This document shows, piece after piece, positions 8,961 through 47,326 of a stretch of 64,000 nt of DNA (the first letter of the stretch is position 1; each line of letters opens with the position of its first letter). The position numbers and the translations under genes are program-made. The notes under the pieces are model-generated. The model saw only the letters and a program-made list of their open reading frames with translations, had not been told where the DNA came from and ran no database searches. The DNA is from Syntrophus aciditrophicus (GTDB lineage: Bacteria > Desulfobacterota > Syntrophia > Syntrophales > UBA5619). Where the stretch lies: the NCBI GenBank assembly GCA_020722315.1, contig DYLD01000001.1, positions 13,296 to 77,295 of the forward strand. The letters are read 5' to 3'.

Positions 8961-9151
8961 GAGACCGTTGCAAAACGCCGCCTTTCGCGCTCATAAATCT
9001 TTTTCGACCCCGCTGCGTCTCGCTAAAGACTATACAGGCTAAACGCTCTCTAACGTTCGCGTTCTTAACGCCTTTCGAGTCTTGCTGCGACGGCGGGGTA
9101 CCCCGAAAAATCTTTGAAATCGCGCTTCAGGCAGCATTTTTCAAAGGTCAC
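8961..9151. repeat. ~190-bp palindromic intergenic repeat, copy A (within the cbi operon)
   Basis: It aligns by eye along its full length with 21405-21595, and in reverse complement with 43955-44153 and 46802-46998. The termini are GAGACCnTTGCAAAACGCC ... GCATTTTTCAAAGGTC. Confidence 0.85.
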
Positions 9152-9199
9152 CGTGCTCGACTTCCCCGGCCGGGCAAAAAAGCGGCCGGGACTCCGCCG

Positions 9200-17017: not shown

Positions 17018-17169
17018 ACGCTCCAGATTCAGTAACTTTTATTGACACGAGAAAATCCAAACAAAAAATCCCCGGCCATATCAAACGTATGACCGGGGAT
17101 TAAACGTTTTTATAATCCGGATTAACCCAACACCTTCGGCCTTCTTTACCGTCGAAGATAAAGCCGAGC

Positions 17170-17365
17170 TGATTCTGGCAGGTCTCCTGGCTTGCAGTTC
17201 ATTCCTCCTCCCTCGCCTTCCCATCGTAACGACAGTGGCCGGCATCTCGGAACCCGGTACTTGCAGTATCGGCATGAGCTTTCCGAGTCCGTAGAGGGAA
17301 TCGTCGCTGCTTACAGTGGCGGGTCCGCTCCCGATTCTTACGGGATTCCCTATTATACCGCCCGA
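17170..17365 (-). promoter_or_regulatory. Cobalamin riboswitch upstream of tonB-exbBD-cbi
   Basis: The minus strand reads AATAGGGAATCCCGTAAGAATCGGGAGCGGACCCGCCACTGTAAGC...GCCACTGTCG...ATGGGAAGGCG...GCAAGCCAGGAGACCTGCC (canonical B12 box). Confidence 0.9.
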
Positions 17366-17598
17366 AGGGGCGGCACCAGAACAGCATGACTTGTAAAAGA
17401 ACCTGTATTTTTCCCAACAACCGTTTTGTGAAATCGGTAACATGGCTTTCCTTTTTCTGTCAAGTGATATTTGCATCGTTACTTTCCCGCTCTTTTCAAG
17501 ATGCGGGGATACTGAAGCCACCACCGGAACTGATTGGAAAAGATTCGTCTCAGCCGTCAATCCGTCCTTCCGGCAAAAAACGAGCTCCTCCGTCAGGA

Positions 17599-21283: not shown

Positions 21284-21404
21284 TGCTTCTCCTCCTTTCC
21301 TCTTTATTGAATTAAATGCGGAAATTTCCTGAAAGGAAGGAGTTCCATGGCATGGCGGCTGTGCTCGACGGAATAACTTTTGTTTTCTCGAGAACTTACA
21401 TGGA

Positions 21405-21595
21405 GAGAACTTTGCAAAACGCCACCTTCGCGCTGATCGGATCTTTTTCGACCCCGCGGCGCCTCACATCGGCTTCAAAGGTTAAACGCTCTGGGATAGT
21501 TCGCGTTCCTGACGCCTTTGCAGCCTTGCTGCGACGGCGGGGTACCCCGAAAAATCAATAAATGCGCGCTTCAGGCGGCATTTTTCAAAGCTCTC
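21405..21595. repeat. ~190-bp palindromic intergenic repeat, copy B
   Basis: Same orientation as copy A. The shared core is ATCTTTTTCGACCCCGC...TAAACGCTCT...GTTCGCGTTC...CTTGCTGCGACGGCGGGGTACCCCGAAAAATC...GCGCTTCAGGC.GCATTTTTCAAAG. Confidence 0.85.
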
Positions 21596-21617
21596 ATGGA
21601 TAAAAACACAATTCCGC

Positions 21618-21980: not shown

Positions 21981-22793
21981 ATGAAGACAATCAAAGCTGT
22001 GAAAGTCAAACTCGGTTATGGAAACAAGGTCGTCTTGACGGATATCGATCTGGAGGTGTCCGGAGGCGAATTTATCAGCATCATCGGCCCTTCCGGTGTG
22101 GGGAAAACGACGCTGCTGATGGCGATCAACGGCAACGTAAAGATCTTCGATGGAGAAATGTCCGTTCTCAACCACAATTTGCGAACCATCGGAAACACCG
22201 ATTTGAAATCGATACGCGCCCGGATCGGGGTGATTTTCCAGGGGTATCACCTCGTTAAGCGCCTGAACGTGCTCGACAACGTCGCCGGGGGAATGCTCCG
22301 GAAAATGAATTCCCTGCAGGCCGCCATTAAGTACTACCGGCACGACCAGTACGAGTTGATCTACGGGTACATGCGTGCGGTCAGGCTTGAAAACGAGGCG
22401 CTGCAGCGCTGCGATAGGCTTTCCGGCGGGCAGATGCAGCGTGTGGCCATCGCCCGTGCGCTTGCCCAGGAACCTGAGATCATCCTAGCGGATGAACCGA
22501 TTTCTTCCCTTGATCCGATAAGCGCGACGGGCGTGATGGATACACTGGCCAGGATCAATAAGGAATACGGCCTGACCGTGATCGCCAATCTTCACCAGCT
22601 TGAATACGCCCGGCGCTATTCCCGGCGGATCATCGGGATGAACAAAGGCCGGATCATCTATGACGGCAAGCCCGAGGCGCTCGACGACGCAACCGTCGCC
22701 CGGATTTATCAGGGAGAACGCGCCGGCGAGGTCGAACCATCGCTCGAATTCCCGCTGCCTGCCGCTGCACGGGTAGCTGTCTACAATGCGTAA
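21981..22793 (+). CDS. phnC: Phosphonate ABC transporter ATP-binding protein
   Basis: Walker A GPSGVGKTT, signature LSGGQMQRVAIARAL, and operon context. Confidence 0.85.
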   Translation: MKTIKAVKVKLGYGNKVVLTDIDLEVSGGEFISIIGPSGVGKTTLLMAINGNVKIFDGEMSVLNHNLRTIGNTDLKSIRARIGVIFQGYHLVKRLNVLDNVAGGMLRKMNSLQAAIKYYRHDQYELIYGYMRAVRLENEALQRCDRLSGGQMQRVAIARALAQEPEIILADEPISSLDPISATGVMDTLARINKEYGLTVIANLHQLEYARRYSRRIIGMNKGRIIYDGKPEALDDATVARIYQGERAGEVEPSLEFPLPAAARVAVYNA

Positions 22794-22895
22794 CCGTCGA
22801 AATGAGACGAAACAACACACCGTGAACAAGGAACTACCGTTTTTTTGAAGCAACACATCTCGCTGAACCATCATAAAATTAATAAGGAGGTTACT

Positions 22896-23780
22896 ATGAA
22901 ACAGATGTTAAGAACGGCAATTACGGTCTTGGTAATGACAGGGATCATTCTTACAAAAACGGCATTTGCAGCCGGTAACCCTTCCGACTGGCCCGCTAAA
23001 CTTACGTTCGGCATCATCCCGACGGATTCCTCGTCTAACATAACCGAAAGGACCAAAAATCTTGTCGAATACCTGGAAAAAAGCATCGGCCTACCGATTA
23101 CCGTCAAGGTAACGACGGATTACGCCGGCGTGATCGCCGGTATGCAGTTCAAACATGTTGATTTTGCGTATTTCGGCCCGAAATCGTACGTCGAGGCGGC
23201 AAAGAGAGCCAATGCGGAGGCTTTTGCCATTGAGGTCGGCGAAGACGGAACGACCGGCTACTATGGACTGATCATTACAAAGAAGGGTTCCGGACTCAAC
23301 AGCATCGCGGATATCAAAGGCAAAACATGGGCCTTCACCGACCCGAACTCGACGAGCGGGACGCTTGTCCCGTCCGTCTATTTCTACAAGGAGCTCCATG
23401 TGGCTCCCGAAAAATATTTCTCGAAGGTTATCTATTCGGGAAGTCATGCGGCTTCGATGATCGCCGTACGATCCGGCAGGGTTGATGCGGCATCCACCAA
23501 TGACCTCGATATGGCCCGGGGGGAAGGAAAGACATGGAACTCAGAACAGGATTTCAACATCATCTGGAAGTCTAAACTGATCCCCGGTTCGCCGATGGCA
23601 TACAGGAAAGACCTGCCGCCATCTCTGAAAAAGAGGATCAAAGACGCCTTTCTCGCCTACAGGGATCCTGCCGGCCTCGAAATGCTGAAAATCAAGGGAT
23701 ATGCGGACGGAAATGATTCCGTCTATGATCCCATCAGGGATCTGATTGAGGTCAAGGCCAAAATGGTCGCAAAGAAGTAA
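22896..23780 (+). CDS. phnD: Phosphonate ABC transporter substrate-binding protein
   Basis: Start trimmed to the ATG after the AAGGAGG RBS. It has a signal peptide and the PhnD-like stretch FGIIPTDSS...YFGPKSYVEA...FTDPNSTSG. Confidence 0.85.
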   Translation: MKQMLRTAITVLVMTGIILTKTAFAAGNPSDWPAKLTFGIIPTDSSSNITERTKNLVEYLEKSIGLPITVKVTTDYAGVIAGMQFKHVDFAYFGPKSYVEAAKRANAEAFAIEVGEDGTTGYYGLIITKKGSGLNSIADIKGKTWAFTDPNSTSGTLVPSVYFYKELHVAPEKYFSKVIYSGSHAASMIAVRSGRVDAASTNDLDMARGEGKTWNSEQDFNIIWKSKLIPGSPMAYRKDLPPSLKKRIKDAFLAYRDPAGLEMLKIKGYADGNDSVYDPIRDLIEVKAKMVAKK

Positions 23781-23807
23781 TAGTTTTAAAAGAGGGCAAA
23801 TTCCCCC

Positions 23808-24689
23808 GTGCCGGGCCATGGATGTTGTGCCATGCAGCTTGAAGAGATCAAAAAGAGAACCAATCCGCTCAATCGTTATAACCTGGCGGTTCTGCTAATG
23901 ATGTTTGTACTTGCAACGTGGAGCTGGAAGTCCACCGAGATGAGCGTCGGTGTCCTCGCAAAGGGCTGGCTTAATATGATTGTCTATCTGACGGGAAATC
24001 CGGAGATCGAAAACAGCGGGTTTTTCCCTCCGGCTTCTAGCTCGACCGGGATTGTGAAGTATGTCAAGCTGATGGTTGAAACGGTGCAGATGGCCTTTCT
24101 GGCGCTGATTCTGTCGGTGGCGATCTCTTTCCCGCTCGCGTTTTTTGCCTCGCGCAACACGCTGGAGATCATCTTTCCCGGGCAGCGGCTTTTTGACAGG
24201 GTGATCCGTAAGGTCTCCTATATCACAACCCGGTTCGTGGCGAACCTGGCCCGCTCGATCAACGAACTGGTCTGGTCGCTGATGTTCGTCTCGGCGGTGG
24301 GACTGGGACCGATGCCCGGGATACTCGCGCTCGGCGTGCACACGGGCGGGGTTTTGATCAAGCTGTTTTCCGAGGGAATAGAGAATATCCAGAGCGAGCC
24401 GGTAACCGCGCTGACCGCGACGGGGGCCGGGCCGCTGAAGGTGATACGCTACGCGGTGATCCCGCAGATATCGCCGTTTTTTGTCTCGATGCTCCTCTAC
24501 CGCTTCGAATCGGATGTCCGCTCGGCGACGATTCTCGGTTTCACCGGCGCGGGCGGCATCGGGGTCTATCTGTACGACAAGCTCCGGTCTTATGAAAACA
24601 GGGATGTGACGACAATGCTGATTATCATTATCATCACAGTCGCCATTGTGGATCGGATGAGCGCCTGGATACGGAAAAAATATACCTAA
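23808..24689 (+). CDS. phnE: Phosphonate ABC transporter permease
   Basis: Contains INELVWSLMFVSAVGLGPMPGILAL...YRFESDVRSATILGFTGAGGIG. The start may instead be the ATG at 23832. Confidence 0.8.
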   Translation: MPGHGCCAMQLEEIKKRTNPLNRYNLAVLLMMFVLATWSWKSTEMSVGVLAKGWLNMIVYLTGNPEIENSGFFPPASSSTGIVKYVKLMVETVQMAFLALILSVAISFPLAFFASRNTLEIIFPGQRLFDRVIRKVSYITTRFVANLARSINELVWSLMFVSAVGLGPMPGILALGVHTGGVLIKLFSEGIENIQSEPVTALTATGAGPLKVIRYAVIPQISPFFVSMLLYRFESDVRSATILGFTGAGGIGVYLYDKLRSYENRDVTTMLIIIIITVAIVDRMSAWIRKKYT

Positions 24690-24790
24690 AAAAACGCTCG
24701 CCTCTCCCCCTTAAAGCCTTCTTTCCGGGAACACCCTCCACCCGGGAAGAAGGCGGGGAGTCGGCATATGAAAGAGATGGGAGGATCTGT

Positions 24791-25225
24791 ATGAACATGG
24801 AAGATCAAGAAGCAGCCGGATGGGATCACGTTTTATCGCGGACGGATCTCAAAACGGACCGCCGCATTCTGCTTGTGGTATCGGAAGGTTTGACTGTTCT
24901 GCGGGAGCCGCGTCCGGCGCTGGTGATGATGGCGGTAACGGACAGCTCCGGCGAAAGATTCAATCTCGGAGAGGTTTTGGTCACCGAGGTGGAGGTTTCC
25001 TGCAACGGCGAGAGGGGCTATGGAATCGCCGTAGGGGATTCCGCCGTCAAGGCGATGGCGATGGCGATTGTTGCCGCGGTGATGAAAGGGGAAAACACGG
25101 CCGTAAAGAGGCGACTGCTCAAACTTTTGGAAAGGATAAAACGGAGCAGCCGGCAGGCTCTGGATGTGGAAAATGCCCTTTATGCTGCGACAAAGGTTGA
25201 TTTTCAAATGATGGTGAAAAAATAG
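24791..25225 (+). CDS. phnG: C-P lyase core complex subunit PhnG
   Basis: Contains GERFNLGEVLVTE and a C-terminal ATKVDFQMMV, compared with E. coli PhnG ASRVDFFTMV. Confidence 0.8.
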   Translation: MNMEDQEAAGWDHVLSRTDLKTDRRILLVVSEGLTVLREPRPALVMMAVTDSSGERFNLGEVLVTEVEVSCNGERGYGIAVGDSAVKAMAMAIVAAVMKGENTAVKRRLLKLLERIKRSSRQALDVENALYAATKVDFQMMVKK

Positions 25226-25807
25226 ATGCTTTTTAAAACCGGTTCAGAAGATCAGAGCGTATTCAGGACTATCCTGCAGGCGGTCAGCCATCCCGGCCGA
25301 ATTTTTGTGCTTCCGGAAGCGTCCGATAGGCGAAAGAAGTGGGCTTCGTTGCTGAAACTTCTTACCGCGGTTATGGACGGCGAGATAACGCATCATATCG
25401 TAGACGGCGCATTGTGCCCGGACTTTTCCGATCTTCTCTACGCCGCGACAAAGAGCCCCGCCGTCGCTCTCGAATCTGCGGATTTCGTTATTGTCCCCGG
25501 CGGAGATACAAAAGGGTCCATCACGTCGGCGAAGCGGGGGACGCCGGAGTATCCCGACATGGCGGCAACAATTGTCTACGGGGTTCGTTTTATTGCCGCG
25601 GGCGAGGCTCAGGATGACGGGATTTTTTTACAGGGCCCCGGCATACATGGACGGATTGCTCTGCCGGTGATGGACGGCCTCAACAGCAATGATCTGCGGC
25701 TTCTTTTCGAGATCAACAATGATTTTCCGCTCGGCGTGGACACGCTCTTCGTAGATGAAGCGGGAAGGGTTGTCGCGATTCCGCGCAGCACCCGGATGAC
25801 CGACTGA
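25226..25807 (+). CDS. phnH: C-P lyase core complex subunit PhnH
   Basis: Contains FRTILQAVSHPGRIF, plus matching position and size. Confidence 0.75.
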   Translation: MLFKTGSEDQSVFRTILQAVSHPGRIFVLPEASDRRKKWASLLKLLTAVMDGEITHHIVDGALCPDFSDLLYAATKSPAVALESADFVIVPGGDTKGSITSAKRGTPEYPDMAATIVYGVRFIAAGEAQDDGIFLQGPGIHGRIALPVMDGLNSNDLRLLFEINNDFPLGVDTLFVDEAGRVVAIPRSTRMTD

Positions 25808-25823
25808 ATAAAGAAGAAGCTTT

Positions 25824-26957
25824 ATGGGATATGTTGCGGTAAAGGGTGGCGAACAGGCGATCGAAAACGCCTGCAACCTTTTTGCGTACCAGCGCATAAA
25901 GGGCGGCTCGCGTCCGCTTGCGGTCAAACAGATAGAAGAGCAACTCTATTTGCTTATTGATCGCGTGATGGGTGAAGGGTCGCTCTACGCACCCGAACTC
26001 GCTGCGCTTGCCGTCAAACAGGCCGCGGGGGATACGCTGGAGGCATCGTTCATGCTTCGGGCCTACCGTACGACGTTGCCGCGGATCGCCTCTACGTTGC
26101 CCGGGTCAACCGCGCGGATGAGGATATTTCGGAGGATTTCCGCATCGTTCAAGGATGTTCCGGGAGGTCAGGTGCTCGGTCCGACATCCGACTACACGCT
26201 CCGGCTTCTCAACTTCGATTTGTTTGATGAAACGAAGGCCTCGGCACAGCTTTTCCGCCGGTTCGTCGAACACAACCTGCGGAGCCATGAAAGACTTCCC
26301 GACACCTTTCCCAAGGTCATCGAAATCCTAAGGACGGAAGGATTGATCGTCAATCCGAAATCCGCCGGCTATAGCGACGAAAGTGACGGAGAACCTTTTG
26401 ACATCACCAGGGAGTCCCTTGTTTTTCCCGCTGCCCGCTCCGCCCGCTTACAGGCGATGGCGAGAGGAGAGACCGGCGGTCTTTTGCTTCTGGCATATTC
26501 CAGCATGCGCGGCTACGGTGATGTCCACCCGATTGTCGGCGAGCTGCGTGTGGGCTATCTTCCCGTTGTTGTTCCGGATCCTTATACAAAAGCGCCCCGG
26601 GTAGCCGGAGAGGTCAAGGTGACGGAGGCCGAGATCATTGCCCGTTACGACAGCGGATCCGGGAAACCTCTCTTTACGGTAGGTTACGGTCTGTGCTTCG
26701 GGCAGAACGAGATCAAGGCGATTTCGATGGCGATTCTCGATAGGGCGATGGAGGCCGCGGAAAACAACTCCCCCGCAAATGATCAGGAGTTTGTTCTTTC
26801 TCATATCGATGGGATCGAGTCGATGGGGTTCTGCAATCACTGGAAGCTTCCCCATTATGTTGATTTTCAGTCGGATCTTGACCGACTCAGAAAGGCGCAG
26901 GCATACCATGCCGATCGTGGAAAAGAGCAAAAAACAGACACGACAAATTCTCTATAA
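25824..26957 (+). CDS. phnI: C-P lyase core complex subunit PhnI
   Basis: The N-terminus is MGYVAVKGGEQAIENA. Size is 377 aa. Confidence 0.85.
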   Translation: MGYVAVKGGEQAIENACNLFAYQRIKGGSRPLAVKQIEEQLYLLIDRVMGEGSLYAPELAALAVKQAAGDTLEASFMLRAYRTTLPRIASTLPGSTARMRIFRRISASFKDVPGGQVLGPTSDYTLRLLNFDLFDETKASAQLFRRFVEHNLRSHERLPDTFPKVIEILRTEGLIVNPKSAGYSDESDGEPFDITRESLVFPAARSARLQAMARGETGGLLLLAYSSMRGYGDVHPIVGELRVGYLPVVVPDPYTKAPRVAGEVKVTEAEIIARYDSGSGKPLFTVGYGLCFGQNEIKAISMAILDRAMEAAENNSPANDQEFVLSHIDGIESMGFCNHWKLPHYVDFQSDLDRLRKAQAYHADRGKEQKTDTTNSL

Positions 26958-27774
26958 TTTTGCATTTCTCGACGATGTCGCAAAAAGGGAAATCCGGCGC
27001 AAGATATTAAAGGCCGTGGCTGTTCCGGGCTATCAGGTGCCTTTCGGCTCCCGTGAAATGCCGATTGCCCGCGGCTGGGGTACCGGCGGACTGCAGATTA
27101 CCCTTTCACTGATAGAGCCGTCCGACACGCTCAAGGTGATTGATCAGGGATGCGATTACAGCGTCAATGCGGTCAATATCAAGAAATTCGTGCAGGCCGT
27201 CACCGGCGTCAGAATAACAACCGATACGACCGAGGCGACACTGATTCAGACGAGGCACCGGATCCCCGAAGAACCGATGACCGAGGATCAGATCCTAGTG
27301 CTGCAGGTGCCGTATCCGGAGGCGCTGCGGGAGGTGGAGCCCTCCGAGCAGAAAACCCGTGCGATGCATGCGGAAGGCGACTACGGCCGCATGTGGCTTT
27401 TTCTCTACGAAGACATCATCCATTACGGCGAGGTACGGCTGAGCTACCGGTATCCGGTGCTGGTCAACAACAAATACATCATGGATCCCAGCCCTATCCC
27501 GCGCTGGGACGTGCCGAAGCTCAACATGGCGCGGACGCTTTTTCTTTTCGGGGCCGGGCGTGAGAAAAGGATCTACGCGGTTCCCCCGTACACCAGCGTG
27601 GAGCCTCTGCAATTCGAGGACCATCCGTTCCGGGTCGAGTCGTTCGCCGGCAAGAGGTGCGAACGATGCGGAGCGGAGGATACGTATCTTGATGAGATCA
27701 TCGCGGAAGACGGGGTAACGAGGCACTATTACTGTTCCGACACCTCGTTCTGCGACAAGAGGAGACGAACATGA
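26908..27774 (+). CDS. phnJ: Alpha-D-ribose 1-methylphosphonate 5-phosphate C-P lyase PhnJ
   Basis: Start trimmed to MPIVEK.... Contains YNFAFLDD..REIRRKILKAVAVPGYQVPFGSREMPIARGWGTGG and a C-terminal Cys cluster (CERCG...YCSDTSFC). It overlaps the phnI end by about 50 nt. Confidence 0.85.
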   Translation: MPIVEKSKKQTRQILYNFAFLDDVAKREIRRKILKAVAVPGYQVPFGSREMPIARGWGTGGLQITLSLIEPSDTLKVIDQGCDYSVNAVNIKKFVQAVTGVRITTDTTEATLIQTRHRIPEEPMTEDQILVLQVPYPEALREVEPSEQKTRAMHAEGDYGRMWLFLYEDIIHYGEVRLSYRYPVLVNNKYIMDPSPIPRWDVPKLNMARTLFLFGAGREKRIYAVPPYTSVEPLQFEDHPFRVESFAGKRCERCGAEDTYLDEIIAEDGVTRHYYCSDTSFCDKRRRT

Positions 27775-28610
27775 AGCCTCTGCTGAAGGTCTCCCGTCTC
27801 TCCAAGCGCTATGGGAACGGATGCCTCTTTTGCGCAAACGAAAACGGCGCCGGATTGGTCGGGAACCAGTGCCCGCACTGCAAGTCCGTATTTGCATGCC
27901 GCGATGTCTCGTTCGACCTTTTTCCGGACGAGGTGCTCGGCATCGTCGGGGAAAGCGGGTCGGGGAAAAGCACACTGGTCAGGCTTTTGCATTTTGAGGA
28001 AGAGGCCACCGGGGGAGAGGTCTTCCTGAATGCGTCCACAGGCGAGGAAAAGTCGCAAAACGTGCTTGCGTTGGGCCCTTTCGCAAAACGGCAGCTCAGA
28101 AACCGTAAGTTCGGCATCGTCTATCAGAACCCCCAGATGGGGCTCAGGATGGATGTCAGCGCGGGCGGCAACGTCGCGGAAAAACTACTCGCGGCGGGCT
28201 GGCGCAACGTCGGCCTGATACGGGAAAGGGCGGGAGAACTCCTAAAAAAGACCGAGATTCCGCTCAGCCGGATGGACGAAGCGCCCCGCAATTTCAGCGG
28301 AGGCATGCAGCAGCGCGTCCAGATCGCCAAGGCCCTGTCGAATAAACCGCGGATTCTGCTGCTGGACGAAGTAACGACCGGCCTTGATTTATCTGTTCAG
28401 GCGCGGGTGCTCGATCTCATCAAGAATCTCCAGCGGGAACTGAAACTCTCCGCCCTTGTGGTTTCCCACGACCTCGGTGTCATCCGTCTTTTATGTCACA
28501 GAACCATCGTGATGCGCTACGGGAGGGTCGTCGAGTCCGGCCTGACGGACCAGATCCTCGAGGATCCGCAGCATCCATACACGCAGCTGCTTGTCAGCTC
28601 GCGATTGTGA
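27771..28610 (+). CDS. phnK: C-P lyase system ATP-binding protein PhnK (with a Cys4 insertion)
   Basis: Contains [28 protein letters not shown] and a C-terminal [13 protein letters not shown], compared with E. coli PhnK. Confidence 0.85.
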
Positions 28611-28621
28611 GTCGGAAATTT

Positions 28622-29311
28622 ATGCTGAAGGCGACAAATCTATCAAAAAGTTTCGTATTGCATGCCCTCGATAAAAAACAGATCGACGCATTCCGGAAGG
28701 TCTCTTTCGAACTGGCGCCGGCGAGGTTTCTCGGCATCCGGGGTATCAGCGGCTCCGGAAAGAGTTCGATACTGAAATGCATTTACCGAACCTACCTTCC
28801 GACGGAAGGAACGATCAACTACCATTCCCGACGGGGTGTGTTGAATCTGGCGGATCTTCCCGAACAGCAAATCCTTGCGCTGCGCCGCGAGGAAATAGGC
28901 TTTGTTTCCCAGTTCCTGCACGTTCTGCCACGGGTTTCGGCGCTTGATCTCGTCGCGGAGCCGCTTTGGTCGCAGGGAGTCCCGCTGCCGCAGGCAAAGA
29001 AACGGGCAAAAGAACTGCTCGGCTATCTGAATATTCCGCCTGCTCTTTATGATGCCTATCCCGCGAACTTCAGCGGCGGGGAGCAGCAGCGGATCAACAT
29101 CGCCCGGGCGGTGATCTGGAACCCCCGACTGTTGCTGCTGGACGAACCCACCGCGTCGCTGGACGAAGGGTCCGTCAAACGGGTGATTTCGCTTCTGAGG
29201 GAACTGAAGAATGCCGGGACGGCGATGATCGGGATTTTCCACGATACAGCCGTCATGGATTCCATTGCGGATGACATATATCATATTAAACCGGTGAGCC
29301 ATGAAACCTGA
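28622..29311 (+). CDS. phnL: C-P lyase system ATP-binding protein PhnL
   Basis: Start trimmed to [11 protein letters not shown]. Contains GISGSGKSS and [14 protein letters not shown]. Confidence 0.8.
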
Positions 29312-30464
29312 ACGTTTTTTTGTAGATAACGGTACTGTCGTTCTTCCTGAACGGGTAATGGAGAACGCCGTTGTTGTCATTGAAAAGGGGCGGATCGCCG
29401 CCGTCGAAAACGGCAAAAAACGATTCAACGGCGCGCGCCGGATCGATGCGTCCGGCTGCCTTGTGCTGCCGGGGCTGATTGATTTGCACAGCGACGCGCT
29501 GGAAAGGGAACTCGAACCGAGGCCGAACGCCTTTTTCCCGACGGAGATGGTCCTGCGTGAACTCGACAAAAAGCTTGCCGCCGCGGGCATTACGACGATC
29601 TACCACGCGATCTCATTTGCCGAAGGGGAAATAGGAACCCGCTCAAACGAGATGGCGAAGCAGATTGTCGAAACGGTAAAAAAGCTGACGGACAAGTTCC
29701 GGGTTCGAACAAGGGTTCATGCCCGCTACGAGCTTACCGACATCGAGGCACTGCCCATCGTCCGGGATCTGATCGGCGAACACAGAATTGATATGCTCTC
29801 GTTCATGGATCACACCCCCGGGCAGGGTCAGTTCCGCGAGGCCGCCTCGTTCCACCGGTACTACAGCGTAGTCTACAGCAAAACGGACATCGAGATAGCC
29901 GAGATGATAGAAAAAAAACAGGCGGCGCATGCCTCGACGGTGGAACGTCTGCTCTATTTGCTTAATCTATGCCGATCCTCCGAAATCCCGCTGGCCTCGC
30001 ACGACGACGACTCGAGGGAGCGCCTCGCGTGGCTCAACGAACAGGGCAGGTTCATTTCGGAATTTCCGGTAAATATCGAAGCGGCCCAAGCGGCGCGGGA
30101 TTTCGGGTTTTCGGTCAGTATGGGTGCACCGAATGCGCTCAGGGGAACCTCCGTAACCGGCAATCTGAGCGCCCGGGAGGCGATCGAGCGGAAACTCTGC
30201 AACATCCTCTGCTCGGACTATGTGCCGTCGGCGCTGTTGCAGGGGGCATTGAAACTCGTTGATACAGGTATGCTGACGATGCCGGAGGCGATCAAACTCG
30301 TTTCGCTGAATCCGGCCCGTGCGGTAGGCATCGACCATGAAACCGGCTCGCTGGAGCCTGGTAAGGCTGCCGATTTTCTGCTGTTGAAAAAAACAAACGG
30401 CTACGGAGACGTGACAAAAACCTTCGTCACCGGAAAGGAAATCTATTCGACATGCTGGAGATAG
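29301..30464 (+). CDS. phnM: Alpha-D-ribose 1-methylphosphonate 5-triphosphate diphosphatase PhnM
   Basis: An amidohydrolase-fold protein. Contains [15 protein letters not shown] and ...ASHDDD.... Confidence 0.85.
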
Positions 30465-31399
30465 GAAGTCAGATCAACGAGGTAAGAACGGACGGGGATC
30501 TCGATGTGCTGCGACGGGATCTGGACTACTTTACAATGATCGGTCTCGAGGCAGCGGAGATTCCGCCGCACGGGCTCGATGCGATCAAAAACGGACAGCT
30601 TGATAAAACGAGAACGAAGAAGATCCGAAAGATCCTCAGGGACTATAAGCTGATCTATTCCGTGCATGCCCCTGATCCGCTGAATCTCATGGAGAAGGCG
30701 AAAGCGGCGCTCCATATCCAGGTTTTTCAGGCAAGCATGGAATTTGCAGGAGCGATCGGAGCCGGAATCGTCGTGTACCATGCCGGACGTCCCATTTCGG
30801 AAGAGGCGTTTCTGGATGTACCCCACACCGAGCTGCCGACGGGGCAGTTGAAGGCGTTGCAGGAGCTGGAGGCCGAACGTCTGCAGAAAATGGCCGACGC
30901 GTTTCCGGACATCACGATCTGCGTCGAAAACGCCCGCCCCTATCTCGGCCATTCACCGTATTGCTACGGTGAAGAACTCGACAAACTGCATGCTCAAATC
31001 AAGATGATCAACCGCCCGAATGTCCGCATTGCGCTCGATCTCGGCCATCTGTATATGTCCGCTCGCTTTTTCTCGTTCAACCCGGTTGTCGCCGTTCGGG
31101 AGGCGCGGGAATCCATCGGGCATGTCCATATCCACGACAATTTCGGGGATGCGGTGTATTACGGGGAAAAACAGCAAACCCATCAACTGCCGTTCGGCCG
31201 GGGGGACTCCCATATGCCGGTCGGATGGGGCATCATTCCGTTTCGTGAAATCCTGGGGCAAATGCTTGACTGTTATGAAGGACTTTTCATCATGGAGCTG
31301 CGCAGCCGCTACTTTTCGGCTACGGAGGCATCCTTGAAAAATTTGAAGGAGATTCTCGCCCCGTTCAAGCGGCAGCGAAAGAAGCATCAGAAGCATTGA
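30452..31399 (+). CDS. Xylose-isomerase-like TIM-barrel (sugar phosphate isomerase/epimerase / AP-endonuclease-2 family) protein
   Basis: The motif series HAPDP, VVYHAG, CVENAR, DLGHLY, HVHIHDN and IMELR fits the metal-ligand pattern of that fold. It overlaps the phnM end by 13 nt. Confidence 0.65.
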   Translation: MLEIGSQINEVRTDGDLDVLRRDLDYFTMIGLEAAEIPPHGLDAIKNGQLDKTRTKKIRKILRDYKLIYSVHAPDPLNLMEKAKAALHIQVFQASMEFAGAIGAGIVVYHAGRPISEEAFLDVPHTELPTGQLKALQELEAERLQKMADAFPDITICVENARPYLGHSPYCYGEELDKLHAQIKMINRPNVRIALDLGHLYMSARFFSFNPVVAVREARESIGHVHIHDNFGDAVYYGEKQQTHQLPFGRGDSHMPVGWGIIPFREILGQMLDCYEGLFIMELRSRYFSATEASLKNLKEILAPFKRQRKKHQKH

Positions 31400-38380: not shown

Positions 38381-38689
38381 TGCCTGAATATGAATCTATA
38401 TTTGCTCTCATTTCCGGAACAAACCTCTTTCCTCGTCGGACGCAGTGTACAAAAAGAAAATGACCCTGTTATTAACAGTCTGTGAATTTTCGATGAAATT
38501 AGAAAAAGGATGATTTCTTCTCGGGAATAGTGTTCGATCAGCACTTTACGCTGTTCGTCCACAAACCGCCTTTCTAACCGATGATAATAGCCCCTTTGTT
38601 TCCCGCCTGTTCGCCTATTCATTCGTAGCCGGCGAAATTTTATTTCTGCTTGACAGGAACCGGAATTTTTTATAACGAAAAATCGTTTA

Positions 38690-38850
38690 TAAGATCATGG
38701 TGGATCAGAGGAAGAGGGGTGTGATTCCCCCGCTGCCCCGCAGCCGTGAAGGGAACGAAAGCCTAAAAATATCCACTCCTGAGATAGGTCAGGGGGAAGG
38801 AAGGCAAGTAGGGGGCCCGAAGCCGGAAGACCGATCCGCCGGGGTGATTC
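38690..38850 (+). promoter_or_regulatory. Cobalamin riboswitch upstream of the btuCD-like genes
   Basis: Reads GAGGAAGAGGGGTGTGATTCCCCCGCTGCCCCGCAGCCGTGAAGGGAACG...CCACTCC...GGGGGAAGG...GAAGCCGGAAGACC. It is followed by GGGAGG and the ATG at 38861. Confidence 0.85.
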
Positions 38851-38860
38851 TCGTGGGAGG

Positions 38861-39904: not shown

Positions 39905-40735
39905 ATGGAAATTCTAAAGATCGAGGGCGTCAGTTTCCGGTATGACGCCGAATGGATTTTAAAGGATATCAGTCTCACGATCGGAAGGGGCGAGCTGTGG
40001 GGGATTTTAGGGCCGAACGGCTCCGGAAAGACGACGCTGCTGAATCTGATCGACGGGATCATCTCGCCGCAGAAGGGCGCGATAAAGATCGAAGGAATCG
40101 CCGTCGGGAAGATCCAAAGAAGGAATCTCGCGAAGCTGATCGCCGTCGTTCCGCAGGAAACCGCGTGGATCTTCCCCCTGACCGTCGAAGAGGTCGTCCT
40201 GATGGGTCGGACGCCCCACCTCGGCCGATGCGAGTTCGAATCGAAGCAGGATTTCGATGTCGCCCGGTCGGCCATGGAGGCAACCGACGTGCTCGGGTTT
40301 TCATCGCGCCTTATCCAGTCGTTGAGTGGCGGGGAGAGGCAGAGGGTTCTGATCGCCCGCGCGCTTGCCCAGCAGCCGAAGATGCTTCTTCTCGACGAAC
40401 CCACTTCATCGCTGGATATAGCCCACCAGATACGGATTTTTGAACTCCTTCGCCGGTTGAGCGAAGAATCGGGGCTTACCGTCCTGGCTGCCACGCATGA
40501 TATGAACCTGGCCTCACTGTACTGCAACAGGATCGCCCTGTTGCACAAAGGAGATTTTTATTCAAACGGGACGCCTGAGGAGGCACTGACACAAAAGAGC
40601 ATACGAGATGTTTACGGGGTCGACACCGTTGTCGACCGTCATCCATTAACCGGTCTGCCGAGGATTTCACTCCTCGGCGGCCATTCGCCCAAACGAGGAA
40701 GCCGGTGGAAATCCGGCGCTGCCCCGCATCTGTAA
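39905..40735 (+). CDS. ABC transporter ATP-binding protein (BtuD/FepC type)
   Basis: Contains GPNGSGKTTLL and LSGGERQRVLIARAL. The last ~20 codons overlap the next riboswitch. Confidence 0.85.
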   Translation: MEILKIEGVSFRYDAEWILKDISLTIGRGELWGILGPNGSGKTTLLNLIDGIISPQKGAIKIEGIAVGKIQRRNLAKLIAVVPQETAWIFPLTVEEVVLMGRTPHLGRCEFESKQDFDVARSAMEATDVLGFSSRLIQSLSGGERQRVLIARALAQQPKMLLLDEPTSSLDIAHQIRIFELLRRLSEESGLTVLAATHDMNLASLYCNRIALLHKGDFYSNGTPEEALTQKSIRDVYGVDTVVDRHPLTGLPRISLLGGHSPKRGSRWKSGAAPHL

Positions 40736-40832
40736 GCGTAACGAACACCGCACGATGCCACTGGTTTCTTTCAGAAACCGGGAAGGCGCGGCAAGTAGGG
40801 AGACGCAAGCCAGAATATTCGCCCGGCGGATG
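40672..40832 (+). promoter_or_regulatory. Cobalamin riboswitch upstream of the btuB-like receptor
   Basis: Reads GAGGAAGCCGGTGGAAATCCGGCGCTGCCCCGCATCTGTAAGCG...GCCACTGG...CCGGGAAGGCGCGG...GCAAGCCAGAATATTCGCC. The B12 box is degenerate. Confidence 0.75.
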
Positions 40833-40973
40833 AAACACAACTGCTTTTCGAGAGGGAAAGGAGGCTGTATGAAGGAATCGGAAAAGAAAACGCCATCCTA
40901 ATGAGTCGATGTGATTGAAGGAGCAAAAGCAGGAATGACTTACAGACCGCAAACTCACAGGAGGGAGTGAAAG

Positions 40974-42953: not shown

Positions 42954-43664
42954 ATGGAGGGCGTCGTAAAACCAAAAAGCTTCGTTTCGTGGAGCGGCGG
43001 AAAGGATTGTGCGCTGTCGTACTACCGTGCAACAGAAACAAACAGGATCGCCTATCTTTTGAACATGATTGCCGAGACCGGCGACGTGTCCCGGTCTCAC
43101 GGCATCCGGACAAAAATCATGCAGCTCCAGGCGGAGGCGATAGGAGTCCCGCTGATGCAGGTCAAAAGCTCATGGGAGAGTTATGAAGCACAATTCAAGA
43201 AGGCCGTAGCCGTTCTCAAAGAAAAAGGGGTGGAAGTGGGGATCTTCGGAGACATCGACCTCGAAGAGCACAGACAATGGGAGGAAAGGGTCAGCAGGGA
43301 ATCGGGCATAAGCGCTGTTTTGCCGCTCTGGGGGACAAAAAGGGAACAGCTTCTGCACGAATTTATCGAATCCGGATTCGAGGCCGTCATTGTTGCGACA
43401 AAGGAGGATCTACTTGGGGACAAATGGCTGGGACGGAGAATCGATAAAGATTTTATCAGCGAAATCTCAAATGTCTCCGGCGTTGACGCTTCAGGTGAAA
43501 ACGGGGAGTACCACACCTTCGTGCTGTCCGGCCCGATATTCCACAAACGTTTGCAAATCGTGAAGTCCGAAAAGATCACACGCCAGGGGTACTGCTTTCT
43601 TGACATATCGGAATGCGAGCTAGTGGAAAATGAATTGCATCAGGCACGAAACACGAAAGACTAA
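42954..43664 (+). CDS. Dph6-related / MJ0570-type ATP pyrophosphatase (DUF71)
   Basis: It has the PP-loop FVSWSGGKDCALS and the later motif GENGEYHTFV. Confidence 0.65.
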   Translation: MEGVVKPKSFVSWSGGKDCALSYYRATETNRIAYLLNMIAETGDVSRSHGIRTKIMQLQAEAIGVPLMQVKSSWESYEAQFKKAVAVLKEKGVEVGIFGDIDLEEHRQWEERVSRESGISAVLPLWGTKREQLLHEFIESGFEAVIVATKEDLLGDKWLGRRIDKDFISEISNVSGVDASGENGEYHTFVLSGPIFHKRLQIVKSEKITRQGYCFLDISECELVENELHQARNTKD

Positions 43665-43699
43665 AAAGAGGGATTTGTGTGAATTACAATGAGGATTCG

Positions 43700-43942
43700 C
43701 TGATTAGGTTCCCGGATTTCGGGGGAATAATAACGGGGGTTACGAAGGCCTGATTGTCCTTATCGTCGAGGTGCTGGCCGATGGCCGGCGAGATTAGGAT
43801 AGGACGTTCTTCCGGACATGAAATACTCGATAATGACGCGCAAAATGCGGCCGGAGGCTGGCGTTTCGAACCGGGAACAAGAAATGGCAAGCCCGTGAAA
43901 ATGCTTGCCGAGGTGCCGGTACGATCCGTCCTGAACGAGTAG
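43700..43942 (+). pseudogene. TonB C-terminal-domain fragment with a frameshift
   Basis: One frame reads GYEGLIVLIVEVLADGR. The next frame reads GEIRIGRSSGHEILDNDAQNAAGGWRFEPGTRNGKPVKMLAEVPV. Together they resemble a TonB C-terminal domain. No N-terminal part is present. Confidence 0.55.
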
Positions 43943-43954
43943 CATCCTCGATGT

Positions 43955-44153
43955 GAGACCTTTGAAAAATGGTGCCTGAAGCGCAAATTTATTGATTTTT
44001 CTTAGGCACCCCCCGTTCTGAGAGCAAGGCTTTTAAAGGCATTAAGAACGTAAGCGATCCCAGAGTGTTCAGCCCCCCTAGAGCCTTTTCGCCAAGACGC
44101 CGCGGGGTCGAAAAAGATTTATGAGCGCAAGGGCGGCGTTTTGCAAAGATCTC
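43955..44153. repeat. ~190-bp palindromic intergenic repeat, copy C (reverse orientation relative to A and B)
   Basis: Its reverse complement aligns with copies A and B along the full length. The termini are GAGACCTTTGAAAAATGG ... GTTTTGCAAAGATCTC. Confidence 0.85.
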
Positions 44154-44175
44154 GATATGTTATGAGCACAGCAAA

Positions 44176-45024
44176 ATGATGCCGATAAACCAGGCAAAAA
44201 GATCACTCTTTTTCATGTTGACGGCCATTTTTCTTATGTTCCCCGTAATCGCTCTTCCGGCCTCTCCAAAACGTATTGTCTCGCTTGCACCCAGTTTAAC
44301 GGAAATTATATGCGATCTCGGCATGTCGGAAAGGCTAGTCGCGGTGACCGATTATTGCGACTACCCGCCCGAAGTGATCAAAAAGCCCAAGGTCGGAGGT
44401 TTTGCGAATCCATCTCTGGAGATGATCGTCTCTTTGAAGCCAGATCTGGTTGTGCTGACCGAAGACGGCAATCCGAAATCACTGAATGACCGACTCCGGA
44501 ATATCGGGATAAAGACGTACATTTTCCGGGCGCGAAGGATCAAGGAGCTTCCCCAGGCTATTGTTGATCTCGGAATTGCGCTTGGCATACCCAAACGGGC
44601 GGAGTTGAACGCACACCGGTTTTCAACCCGACTGGATCGTTTCGAAAAAAGTGTTCAAAAACATACTGCGGGCAAGGCTAAAAAGGCCGTCTTCATTGTT
44701 CAACCGGTTCCACTGGTCGTCGCGGGAAAGGAAACGGTCATGGACGATGCGTTTACGATTCTCGGAATAGAAAATATCGGGGCCGCGGGAGGAAGAGGCT
44801 ATCCGAAATTCTCTGTCGAGGAGATTATACGTCTTGAGCCCGATGTCTTGTTTTTCGGCAAAGGAACAAAAATGGAAGAACGCTCCAAACCCCTCCTCAA
44901 CAAGCTCTCATTTCTGCGTGCCGTTCGGGAAGGGAAGGTCTTTTTTCTTGACGTTGCGGTTTACCGGCTTGGACCCAGAATAATCGATATTATGCAGGAA
45001 ATCTCCGACAGGATTTATCCCTGA
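44176..45024 (+). CDS. Periplasmic corrinoid/iron-complex-binding protein (BtuF-like)
   Basis: It has a signal peptide and the stretch RIVSLAPSLTEIICDLG...VAVTDYCDYP...KPDLVV. Confidence 0.8.
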   Translation: MMPINQAKRSLFFMLTAIFLMFPVIALPASPKRIVSLAPSLTEIICDLGMSERLVAVTDYCDYPPEVIKKPKVGGFANPSLEMIVSLKPDLVVLTEDGNPKSLNDRLRNIGIKTYIFRARRIKELPQAIVDLGIALGIPKRAELNAHRFSTRLDRFEKSVQKHTAGKAKKAVFIVQPVPLVVAGKETVMDDAFTILGIENIGAAGGRGYPKFSVEEIIRLEPDVLFFGKGTKMEERSKPLLNKLSFLRAVREGKVFFLDVAVYRLGPRIIDIMQEISDRIYP

Positions 45025-45102
45025 CAACGGCGGCCAGGCCGGCTTGAGGCGGCTGGATGGGTGATCCGCTTTGGATCGGTCGTTCGGAATTTCAAAAAAG
45101 CC

Positions 45103-45132
45103 TTGACACATTACAATAGCGTATCCTATAGT
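45103..45132 (+). promoter_or_regulatory. Sigma-70-like promoter for the fchA-like/folD genes
   Basis: TTGACA (45103-45108), an 18-nt spacer, then TATAGT (45127-45132), about 50 nt upstream of the ATG. Confidence 0.45.
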
Positions 45133-45181
45133 TCGGCGCTGCAAAAAGGCTCTTATCACAAAAGAAAAGGAGGGAACAGAC

Positions 45182-45814
45182 ATGTCGATGGTGGATAACC
45201 CCTGTACGCACTTTTTGTCCGAACTGGCGTCCAAGGCCCCCGTCCCGGGAGGAGGGGGAGCTGCCGCGCTCGGAGGCGCGATAGGTATGTGCCTCAGCAA
45301 CATGGTGGGCAATCTTACCGTGGGTAAAAAGAAGTATGCCGATGTGGAAGGCGAAGTCAAAGACCTGCTTCAGCGCGGCGATGCGGTCATCGAAAAACTC
45401 AAAAACCTTGTGGATAAAGACGCCGAAGTGTTTGCCCCTCTGTCCAAAGCATACGGATTACCGAAAGACACGCCGGAACAGATAAAGAAAAAAGACGAAA
45501 CCATTGAGGAGTGCAGCAAGGTCGCCTGCTCAGTTCCGCTGGAGATCATGCGGAATGCCTATGAAGGAATACAAATTCATAACAGAATGGGGCAGATCGG
45601 CTCGATGCTTGCGATCTCCGATGTGGGCTGCGGCGTCGCTTTTTTGAAAAGCGCATTGATAGCCGCTAGCCTTAACGTCATCATCAATTTAAATACAATT
45701 AAAGATCCCAAATTCTTGGAAGAAACACGAAACGAAATGAATAAGCTGCTGGACGAGGGGTCAAGGCTGGCCGATAAAACGCTCGATCTGGTTATTGCTA
45801 AACTGACAAAATAA
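45182..45814 (+). CDS. Cyclodeaminase/cyclohydrolase-family protein (FTCD C-terminal-like, FchA-like)
   Basis: Contains FLSELASKAPVPGGGGAAALGGAIG and ...NLTVGKKKY. It lies next to folD. Confidence 0.7.
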   Translation: MSMVDNPCTHFLSELASKAPVPGGGGAAALGGAIGMCLSNMVGNLTVGKKKYADVEGEVKDLLQRGDAVIEKLKNLVDKDAEVFAPLSKAYGLPKDTPEQIKKKDETIEECSKVACSVPLEIMRNAYEGIQIHNRMGQIGSMLAISDVGCGVAFLKSALIAASLNVIINLNTIKDPKFLEETRNEMNKLLDEGSRLADKTLDLVIAKLTK

Positions 45815-45826
45815 AGGAGAGGATCA

Positions 45827-46684
45827 ATGGCAGAAATTCTTAAAGGAAAACCTGTAGCTGATGCGATAAACGCAGAGCTTACCCAGAAGGTTGCTCAACT
45901 CAAATCGCGCGGCATCTCCCCCAAACTCGGCATAATACGTGTCGGGGCGAGGCCGGACGATCTTTTTTACGAGGGAGGTGCAAAGAAGAACTGCGCCGCT
46001 ATCGGCATGGAATCCGAGGTTTTTGAATATCCGGAAGATATTCAGCAGGATGCTCTGGAAAAAGCCGTAATCGAAGTCGGCGCCAAGAAGGATGTGCACG
46101 GCATTCTGATGTTCTTCCCGTTGCCGAAGCATCTTGACGGGAAAAAAATACGGGATCTGATACCCGTGGAAAAGGACGTGGACTGTTTGACAACCGCAGG
46201 AGCCGCGAAGGTATTCACCGACGATCCCACCGGTTTCCCCCCCTGCACGCCGACCGCGTGCATGGAGATGCTGCATCACTACAACGTCCCTCTGAAGGGC
46301 AAGAAATGCACCATCGTCGGAAGATCTCTTGTCGTAGGCAAGCCGGTTGCGATGCTCCTCCTAAGAGAGCACGCCACTGTGACGATATGCCATTCAAGAA
46401 CCGAAAACCTGCCCGATGTCTGCAAGGAAGCTGACATACTCGTCGCGGCGGTAGGCCGCGCGAAAATGGTGAAGAGCAATTTCGTCAAACCCGGTCAGAT
46501 CGTCATCGATGTAGGCATCAACCCCGATCCGGACAACCCCGGAAAGTATTGCGGGGATGTCGATTTCCCGGGTGTTGAGCCGATCGTCGCGAAAATCTCA
46601 CCCGTGCCCGCAGGCGTCGGTTCCGTCACAACTTCGGTCCTCTGCAAACAGACACTGCAGGCCTGCGAGATGCAAACGGCGTAA
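45827..46684 (+). CDS. folD: Bifunctional methylenetetrahydrofolate dehydrogenase/methenyl-THF cyclohydrolase
   Basis: Contains ILKGKPVA and ...[15 protein letters not shown]...[10 protein letters not shown]...[11 protein letters not shown]. Confidence 0.9.
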
Positions 46685-46713
46685 GTTATCGCCTCATTTT
46701 ACCTCTTTTCATT

Positions 46714-46761
46714 AAAGCGGCTTTTCGTGAAAGACACAATGACCGAAAAGCCGCTTTTTTT
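46714..46761 (+). terminator. Intrinsic terminator after folD
   Basis: AAAGCGGCTTTTCG ... CGAAAAGCCGCTTT followed by TTTTT. Confidence 0.75.
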
Positions 46762-46801
46762 CTTTGACATCTGAGCGCCAGTTATTTCTAATAATCTTAA
46801 T

Positions 46802-46998
46802 ACCACTGAAAAATGGCGCCTGAAGCGCAAAATTATTGATTTTTCTTAGGTACCCCGCCATCAAAGAGCAAGGCTTTTAACGGCGTTAAGAACGCGAACG
46901 ATTCCAGAGCGTTTAGTCCCGTAGAGCCTTGCTCTTTGAGACGCTGCGGGGTCGAAAAAGATTTCGTCAGCTTAAAAGGGGCGTTTTGCAAAGGTCTC
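46802..46998. repeat. ~190-bp palindromic intergenic repeat, copy D (same orientation as C)
   Basis: It aligns with copy C and, in reverse complement, with A and B. It has an internal palindrome CAAAGAGCAAGGCT...AGCCTTGCTCTTTG. Confidence 0.85.
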
Positions 46999-47074
46999 GC
47001 GGTGCTGTGCTGACGCTTTATTGCTCATTTGACATGTACGATTAGAGGCGATCTCGGAAGGCTGCAGGAAAAAC

Positions 47075-47326
47075 ACGCCGGAACGGCATTTGTATCCATT
47101 CCGTGTCTGGCCAAGATCAAGGTTGCCGACCTGCTTTAAGGCCTTTGAACTTGGTGCGGAGGGGGTTTTGCTTGTCGGCTGCCTCTCAGATGATTGTCCT
47201 TATGAACAGGGCGATGTCTGGGCCGGGCGCCTGCATCTTCAGTGCACTGCCGGCATCCGGACCGGAGCAATGGACAGCTTGCCGGAAGAATTCACAGGCA
47301 AGCTAAAAGGGCTGTCAGTCTCTTAA
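47075..47326 (+). pseudogene. MvhD/FlpD-like (hydrogenase/heterodisulfide-reductase-associated) domain remnant
   Basis: One frame reads FVSIPCLAKIKVADLL*. The next reads KAFELGAEGVLLVGCLSDDCPYEQGDVWAGR, compared with MvhD ...[35 protein letters not shown]. The N-terminal Cys motif is absent and there is at least one frameshift. Confidence 0.4.

Follow-up and report, generated by a model that had tools for sequence, protein, structure and literature searches.

It is well known that small palindromic repeats derived from insertion sequences (IS) enter intergenic sites and promote deletions. Correia elements of Neisseria and ERIC/IRU elements of enterobacteria are hairpins of 100-150 bp over their whole length; found between genes and transcribed along with them, they can influence how mRNA is processed. 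The systems closest to the one described here are MITEs of the IS5 family. In Porphyromonas gingivalis, ISPg1 (IS1126) and the MITEs BrickBuilt and MITEPgRS carry the termini GAGACC(A/T)TTGCA ... T(T/G)CAAAGGTCTC; these MITEs have no transposase, are present in 10-20 copies, and have been tied to rearrangements (PMC4596501, PMC2575886). The duplications that flank MITEs with such ends vary from 2 to 5 bp (PMC4596501, PMC2575886). ATR (AT-rich repeat) is a MITE proposed to derive from ISNme1, an IS5-family element of Neisseria meningitidis (PMC4596501).

We analysed a stretch of 64,000 nucleotides, referred to below as the window, in which four copies of one element are found, each 191-199 bp long and set in unrelated flanks. 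The coordinates and orientations given for them by an earlier, sequence-only reading were recovered by BLASTN and by an nhmmer profile, which returned exactly these four copies on the window. Copy A (8961-9151, plus strand, 191 bp) separates two co-directional tetrapyrrole methylase (cbi) genes identified with Pfam, both on the minus strand (9200-9943 and 8188-8946). Copy B (21405-21595, plus strand, 191 bp) lies between two divergent transcription units, a TonB-dependent receptor gene (19067-21283, minus strand) and a phn ABC/C-P lyase operon that begins at 21981 on the plus strand. Copy C (43955-44153, minus strand, 199 bp) is found in the spacer between the stop codon of TonB (43942) and the start of a BtuF-like gene (44176), and copy D (46802-46998, minus strand, 197 bp), intact at its 46998 end and degenerate at its 46802 end, lies between folD and a remnant of an hdrA-like gene. 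The four copies are 75-80% identical, and pairwise BLASTN within the window gives E values of 1e-28 to 1e-48, with similarity that stops at the element ends.

Further copies exist beyond the window. A fifth full copy, F, lies in the same genome about 8 kb past the left end of the window (L071), giving a density of five full copies in about 73 kb of one genome, and a truncated copy, E, is found on a short contig of the same cave metagenome (L011). The contig with copy E has a G+C content of 46% and was binned as Anaerolinea. With the outside copies included, identity ranges from 73 to 87%, with similarity ending at the inverted repeats; since the copies are thus 13-27% diverged, they demonstrate no recent movement. 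The neighbouring genes are unrelated in function, with the cbi genes, the TonB-dependent receptor and phn genes, btuF, and folD with the hdrA remnant beside the window copies, and ubiA/ABC transporter genes and toxin-antitoxin/restriction-modification genes beside the outside ones.

The similarity among the copies might be an artefact of assembly or binning, or a chance palindrome. The window comes from a metagenome-assembled genome, C and D each contain a break in one of the assemblies (L043), and the assemblies disagree over a 30-nt patch of C (44113-44142). However, C and D occur with the same flanks in three independent assemblies (JGI, NCBI MAG and Logan), A and F are present in at least one assembly besides the window, and copies matching at the E values given above are diverged from each other rather than collapsed. 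We regard an artefact as having a negligible probability, the independent assemblies having effectively refuted it.

The element, whose length falls in the range of bacterial MITEs (about 50-1000 bp), has a G+C content of 47-55%, stops in all six frames of most copies, and no open reading frame conserved between copies. That the window lacks a transposase gene, as had been noted from its sequence, was confirmed by comparing about 40 open reading frames with Pfam and by consulting public gene tables, which extend over the greater part of it; no transposase domain was found. The retrieved loci also contained no transposase, and about 85 kb of the source genome yielded neither a transposase nor a full-length IS bearing the ends of the element.

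The terminal inverted repeats are about 15-30 bp long. The left terminus GAGACCTTTGCAAAA and the right terminus TTTTTCAAAGGTCTC are complementary at 14 of 15 positions, and the repeat extends to about 30 nt at about 77%. The imperfect terminal repeats that the first description had proposed are borne out at seven of the eight ends of the window copies, where the pattern GAGACCTTTG[C/A]AAAA is matched with no more than two mismatches, and inverted repeats are found at nine of the ten ends of the five full copies. The exception is the degenerate end of D at 46802, which reads ACCACTG and has lost the terminal GAG. The nested internal palindromes described in the same reading are real, the whole element being an imperfect palindrome with 63 pairs in the consensus hairpin; 91% of the hairpin cells are paired, and shifting the partner by 1-3 columns lowers this to 39-52%. 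Some internal blocks, TCTTTTTCGACCCCGCNGCG among them, show no change across the six copies, which is more conservation than one would expect of dead copies decaying neutrally.

The ends of the element match those of two described IS5-family elements. Compared as strings printed in Table 2 of PMC4596501, the left terminus is identical to that of ISNme1 (15/15) and the right terminus TTCAAAGGTCTC to the right inverted repeat of ISPg1 (12/12), and the link to IS5 rests on these 12-15 nt. The 15-nt inverted repeat of ISNme1 (GAGACCTTTGCAAAA / TTTTGCAAAGGTCTC) is a perfect one, unlike that of the element, whose right end falls one mismatch short. Like ATR, which has about 19 copies per genome, the element is small and non-autonomous, but ATR is AT-rich and, like ISNme1, is hosted by Neisseriaceae, whereas the host here is Desulfobacterota-like. 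BrickBuilt and MITEPgRS contain internal tandem repeats of 23 or 41 nt and have dissimilar 'leader' and 'tail' halves, whereas the element has no tandem repeats and forms one continuous palindrome. Correia and ERIC/IRU elements differ from it in having unrelated termini, TA target duplications and a shorter length, and none of their defining motifs was seen in the element. We conclude that these repeats are probably a family of non-autonomous MITEs with ISPg1/ISNme1-type (IS5-family) ends, presumably mobilised in trans. The family is new and its kind is known: it is an IS5-type MITE, an ordinary bacterial mobile repeat.

Short direct repeats flank three of the five full copies and are uneven in length. 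Copy A is bordered at the consensus boundaries by an exact 4-bp repeat, CGTG (8957-8960 and 9152-9155), which reads CCGTG (5/5) if the last base of the element is counted as common to both. Copy B is bordered by ATGGA on both sides (21400-21404 and 21596-21600), a 5/5 match that two sites at this distance (190 bp) in the window would show with a probability of 0.0015. At copy C, GATGT (43950-43954) faces GATAT (44154-44158), a 4/5 match; agreement this good or better has a probability of 0.02. When the element boundaries were compared, no flanking duplication was found at F or at D, and its absence at D is as expected after a deletion.

These duplications bear on whether the repeats are of the REP/REPIN type, that is, inverted pairs of repetitive extragenic palindromes (REP, units of 20-40 nt) moved as single-stranded DNA by a RAYT (IS200/IS605-like Y1) transposase, a 'REP-like' nature having been offered earlier as an alternative. 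The element resembles the REP/REPIN-RAYT system in being palindromic and intergenic, in folding into a long hairpin, and in occurring in several copies with no transposase of its own nearby. In contrast, its inverted repeats are classical ones, identical to those of DDE-type IS5-family elements; the duplications at three copies, probably of target sites, are of a kind that Y1 transposition does not make; and no Y1_Tnp gene is present in the window or in the retrieved loci, nor is there a RAYT gene in the accessible sequence. Typical REPINs are, moreover, about half as long as this unit of 190-200 bp. The REP-like alternative is therefore not supported, and we hold it to be very unlikely.

Relatives that do not carry the element show what its sites look like when empty, and this comparison of synteny finds it missing at three sites, those of A, C and D. 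At the site of A, the orthologous cbi methylase genes of a relative overlap (ATGA) at locus L053, versus a spacer of 253 nt here; at the site of C, the spacer between TonB and BtuF is 20 nt at locus L046, versus 233 nt here; and at the site of D, locus L044 has an intact HdrA/MvhD-like gene of 646 amino acids after folD, where here we find D and a remnant. The element is absent from about 615 kb of the relatives' loci, and the orthologous operons of these relatives work without it.

Copies C and D have the same orientation and, as had been pointed out, bracket a 2.65-kb segment, measured here at 2648 bp, which carries on its plus strand a btuF-like gene (Peripla_BP_2), an fchA-like gene (FTCD_C) and folD (44176-46684, Pfam). 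A composite transposon bounded by C and D was considered and rejected, because btuF-fchA-folD is the ancestral gene order, found likewise at the relatives' loci L044 and L046, where the element is absent. The bracketing has no special meaning and the genes are not cargo.

The sequence-only reading had also proposed that both copies mark insertion or recombination events beside gene remnants, which proved correct for D and not for C. The tonB fragment on the outer side of C does end at 43942, as described. It is a C-terminal remnant (43738-43942, plus strand) that corresponds to residues ~266-334 of a 334-aa TonB, intact in L046, and its 3' end is the native one, with the stop codon 12 nt from C. 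It is the 5' side, facing away from C, that is truncated (~43738), and C as the cause was rejected, the breakpoint being about 200 bp off and on the other side. With the native stop beside C and the truncation on the far side, C is therefore a plain insertion in the TonB-BtuF spacer. The MvhD-like remnant next to D is real, but it starts directly at the end of D, at 46999, and not at around 47075 as had been suggested. It comprises the last ~125 codons of an HdrA/FlpD(MvhD)-like gene (46999-47314, plus strand), the 646-aa gene being intact in L044, and is decayed, being spread over three reading frames and interrupted by an in-frame stop and a gap of 18 aa. Homology to the intact gene resumes exactly at the intact end of D, which thus marks the breakpoint of a deletion of about 1.7 kb in which the leader and the first ~520 of 646 codons were lost.

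The core of the sequence-only reading, a MITE-like mobile palindrome without its own transposase, is supported by these results, and is strengthened by the IS5-type termini, the short duplications at three copies, the empty sites and the copies outside the window. On this basis a mechanism can be proposed. An IS5-family DDE transposase, encoded elsewhere in the genome, would bind both ends of the element and excise or copy it; insertion at a staggered cut would then leave a short target duplication of 4-5 bp, the landing sites here being intergenic spacers of B12, phosphonate and folate gene clusters. The deletion next to D may have arisen by aberrant one-end transposition or by recombination between two copies in the same orientation. 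Mobilisation in trans by such a transposase and the route of the deletion are what we infer from this arrangement.

The invariant internal blocks could also suggest that the element serves mainly as a structured RNA or a cis-acting mRNA module (such as an attenuator, a stabiliser or an RNase III site) that is transcribed together with the adjoining operons and retained for this function, which is compatible with a transposon origin. Copies A and C are inside operons and so must be transcribed through, and in all four window copies the better-folding, G-U-rich strand is the transcribed strand of the neighbouring genes, with folding energies for the transcribed versus the other strand of -80.2 vs -67.6 kcal/mol at A, -87.2 vs -73.3 at B, -61.3 vs -58.8 at C and -69.9 vs -62.9 at D. 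However, copies F and E lie opposite to their neighbours, so that an orientation bias of 4/4 in the window falls to 4/6 with the outside copies and was dropped as evidence; furthermore, all copies owe their strand asymmetry to one master copy, so that it counts as a single observation. Covariation is not above that of shuffles (two double changes, with 47 of 500 shuffles as high), and neither is the percentage paired (54 of 500 as high). The unrelated functions of the neighbouring genes and the relatives' operons, which function without the element, also argue against such a role. Membership of a known structured RNA family had been named as the outcome that would count against a MITE; Rfam searches at the gathering threshold and at E<=5 gave no match to any of the copies. 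Elsewhere in the window, Rfam matches five cobalamin riboswitches. No sigma-70-like promoter was found in A or B, and a weak terminator-like motif (GCGCTTCAGGCGC followed by a T-run) is present only on the non-transcribed orientation of D. A primary function as RNA thus appears improbable.

In 185,579 species genomes the exact 20-mer TCTTTTTCGACCCCGCNGCG had one real match, copy E, and 11 others due to chance, and all 13 of its matches in metagenome contigs were due to chance. Three patterns gave no real match in viral contigs, and among 72,556 plasmids BLASTN with copy A as the query found only a chance match of 22 nt. To detect spurious open reading frames called on other copies, all copies were translated in six frames and joined into a chimera of 1888 aa, which was compared with 5.8 billion proteins; no protein matched at E<=10. 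The collections scanned are without the window's source, and their negatives are silent on copy number in the source genome.

Two further possibilities concern the biology of the element, and we consider both speculative and unlikely. The unchanging internal blocks, together with the transcribed strand being the better-folding one at the four copies of the window, could mean that it has been co-opted as a co-transcribed RNA hairpin. Alternatively, the truncated copy on the contig assigned to Anaerolinea could point to a recent transfer of the element between unrelated bacteria that share one sulfidic-cave biofilm. If an RNA hairpin is indeed at work, it could act as Correia elements do and adjust or uncouple the expression of genes within the B12, phosphonate and folate operons. 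The main value of the finding is for the annotation and history of the genome, with no new mechanism. In this uncultivated, sulfate-reducer-like bacterium it explains four long spacers of the B12, phosphonate and folate region that would otherwise be puzzling, and accounts for the loss of the HdrA/MvhD-like gene and for assembly breaks at these points. Furthermore, ends of the ISPg1/ISNme1 type, previously known from Neisseria and Porphyromonas, are now seen on a MITE of a Desulfobacterota-like genome.

Four copies of a palindromic repeat, described in a sequence-only reading as a MITE/REP-like family, were located by alignment, BLASTN and a profile search at the positions first proposed: A (8961-9151) and B (21405-21595) on the forward strand, and C (43955-44153, 199 bp) and D (46802-46998) on the reverse strand. 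When the four copies were aligned with 20-nt flanks using MAFFT, mean column identity was 79% within the element, with none beyond it. Copy-against-copy BLASTN inside the window gave E values of 1e-28 to 1e-48, and in the window a four-copy profile matched A, B, C and D and nothing else. The copies start with GAGACCTTTGCAAAACGCC and finish with CATTTTTCAAAGGTCTC; the terminus of D at 46802 is degenerate (ACCACTG), its last three bases being missing. The proposal that the element can fold into a long hairpin also held, since either strand of every window copy forms a single long hairpin, with energies on the two strands of -67.6 and -80.2 kcal/mol for A, -73.3 and -87.2 for B, -58.8 and -61.3 for C, and -62.9 and -69.9 for D. 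In the consensus hairpin, derived from five full copies, 63 base pairs form and 91% of cells are paired; sliding the 3' partner by 1-3 columns lowers pairing to 39-52%.

A full-text literature search with the terminal 15-mers matched Table 2 of PMC4596501, where the inverted repeats of two IS5-family elements are printed, ISNme1 of N. meningitidis (GAGACCTTTGCAAAA / TTTTGCAAAGGTCTC) and ISPg1 (GAGACCATTGCA / TTCAAAGGTCTC). Compared with these printed termini, the left end of the element is identical to the ISNme1 inverted repeat at 15/15 positions, and its right end to the ISPg1 right end at 12/12. MITEs with such ends include ATR in Neisseria and BrickBuilt and MITEPgRS in P. gingivalis, which are present in 10-20 copies, have variable 2-5-bp duplications and are often tied to rearrangements (PMC4596501, PMC2575886). 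Pfam scans and gene tables revealed no transposase gene in the window, as previously noted, or in adjacent contigs. The element most probably represents a new MITE family of the IS5 type (ISPg1/ISNme1-like). Its 15-30-bp ends would be recognised by a DDE transposase whose gene lies at another place in the genome, and insertion by this enzyme would leave a short duplication. A REPIN/RAYT repeat does not fit, because DDE-type ends and flanking duplications conflict with it, so that the MITE part of the original label stands and the REP-like part does not.

Flanks were read by exact indexing at the consensus ends. B lies between ATGGA and ATGGA (5/5), which two sites at a distance of 190 bp in this window would show with a chance of 0.0015, and C between GATGT and GATAT (4/5; a match of 4/5 or better has a chance of 0.02). 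On both sides of A stands CGTG, or CCGTG when the repeat is taken to include the last base of the element, and no flanking repeat was found at the consensus ends of D or of F, a copy outside the window. Evidence for a putative target duplication of 4-5 bp is good, though not uniform across copies.

Close relatives were reached through FolD homologues (L044, 96% identical; L046, 91%; L047-49, 87%), and the element is absent from these loci and, in more distant relatives, from the cbi loci (~615 kb searched in all). L046 has an intact 334-aa TonB and, only 20 nt beyond it, BtuF, whereas at site C the TonB stop at 43942 and the BtuF start at 44176 are separated by 233 nt, a difference explained by the 199-bp copy C. 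The two orthologous methylase genes of the distant relative L053 overlap (ATGA); the corresponding window spacer is 253 nt and holds A. At 9166-9191, within the 48 nt that separate A from the stop of the upstream cbi gene, there is a short G+C-rich hairpin (CCCGGCCG ... CGGCCGGG), and since this hairpin-bearing spacer is wholly missing in L053, the addition here exceeded the 191-bp element.

Site D differs. In L044, folD is followed by a terminator, a promoter-like TTGACA box and a 646-aa HdrA/FlpD(MvhD)-like gene. The window retains the folD terminator and the TTGACA box, then has D, and homology to L044 restarts at most 2 nt from the intact end of D (window 46997-46999 = L044 ~4394-4396); therefore ~1.7 kb is gone, namely the leader plus ~520 codons from the start of the gene. 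The MvhD-like remnant previously placed at ~47075 is indeed present, but begins at 46999, at D's end, and consists of ~125 codons over three frames with one stop and an 18-aa gap. D marks the exact boundary of a deletion, and its lack of a flanking duplication is as expected there.

C had also been linked to the tonB fragment ending at 43942. This end is correct, but C was rejected as the cause of the truncation, since the native stop is kept beside C and the breakpoint lies at the opposite end of the fragment, at ~43738, with a diphthamide-synthase-like gene (42954-43664) in place of the TonB 5' part. Within 42954-43942, this Diphthami_syn_2 gene fills the place of TonB's 5' four-fifths relative to L046, and the replacement is a separate event without element involvement. 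The C/D pair was likewise rejected as a mobile cassette: element-free relatives have the same btuF-fchA-folD order, and the significance attached to the bracketing falls. Apart from these two points and the REP-like option, the sequence-only interpretation was largely right.

We considered whether the element might be a functional RNA, given that in 4/4 window copies the better-folding, G-U-rich strand is the locally transcribed one, and that A and C sit inside operons. However, an Rfam search gave no match on the element, covariation in the hairpin is no better than in shuffles, the two copies outside the window have the reverse orientation relative to their neighbouring genes, and the same operons run in relatives without the element.

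Copy B occupies the divergent spacer upstream of a complete phosphonate uptake and C-P lyase cluster at 21981-31399 (phnC/D/E-like genes, then PhnG, H, I, J and ATPases), itself flanked by two B12 uptake and biosynthesis clusters. Five cobalamin riboswitch aptamers (58-106 bits) lie within the single 64-kb window, at 6037-6239, 6457-6645 and 17160-17395 on the reverse strand and at 38685-38853 and 40658-40841 on the forward strand; two of them share an orientation and precede a CbiK-like gene (4957-6021) with only ~220 nt between them, and may be arranged in tandem.

By exact protein matches the window belongs to the metagenome-assembled genome GCA_975419235.1, and it occurs too in JGI sample 3300000227 and Logan SRR1559028, all from sulfidic-cave sample AS07-7; an artefactual origin of the repeat family is excluded, being contradicted by three independent assemblies. 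Within C, the 30-nt patch 44113-44142 holds 5 changes that set the window and the Logan contig apart from the JGI and NCBI assemblies, with 99.6-99.9% identity outside it. Here the window sequence is like that of copy A, and the JGI/NCBI sequence like those of B and D; the cause could be strain variation, gene conversion among the copies or a chimeric assembly. Logan contig L043 (SRR1559028) corresponds to window 44101-46866, beginning within C and stopping within D. The element is therefore a point at which short-read assembly breaks, perhaps owing to more similar copies at other places in the genome or in strains that occur alongside. FolD shares 82% identity with Desulfobacula FolD, and CbiA homologues bear the names Syntrophales, Deltaproteobacteria or Thermodesulfobacteriota; the genome encodes LptD and TonB-dependent receptors, and the organism is therefore diderm and Desulfobacterota-like.

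The fifth full copy, F (18527-18720 of L071, a contig of the source organism), lies outside the window, ~8 kb before its left end, and shares 87% identity with A; its neighbours are a UbiA-like gene on one side and an NMT1/ABC transporter operon on the other, and it is opposite in orientation to their transcription. An invariant 20-mer scanned against 185,579 species genomes had a single real match, a copy at 866-1009 of L011 that is cut off after ~140 nt. L011 is a 3.5-kb contig from the same cave sample, with 46% G+C against 53% in the window and binned as Anaerolinea sp., in which the copy adjoins toxin-antitoxin-like ORFs and a DNA methyltransferase-like ORF (named from translations only). 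It is either a mis-binned contig of the same organism or evidence that another member of the community carries the element. No real match to the element came from metagenome, viral or plasmid searches. The window's own contigs were absent among the matches of all these scans, whose negatives therefore concern other organisms and not the copy number of this genome.

Identity among copies is 73-87%, with internal blocks, among them TCTTTTTCGACCCCGCNGCG and its partner GCGGGGT, unchanged in 6/6 copies. These blocks are most simply read as subterminal parts required in transposing master lineages; if so, the divergence among copies would be mostly older than insertion. Elements of this kind are already well known; the family itself is new and seems confined to this lineage.
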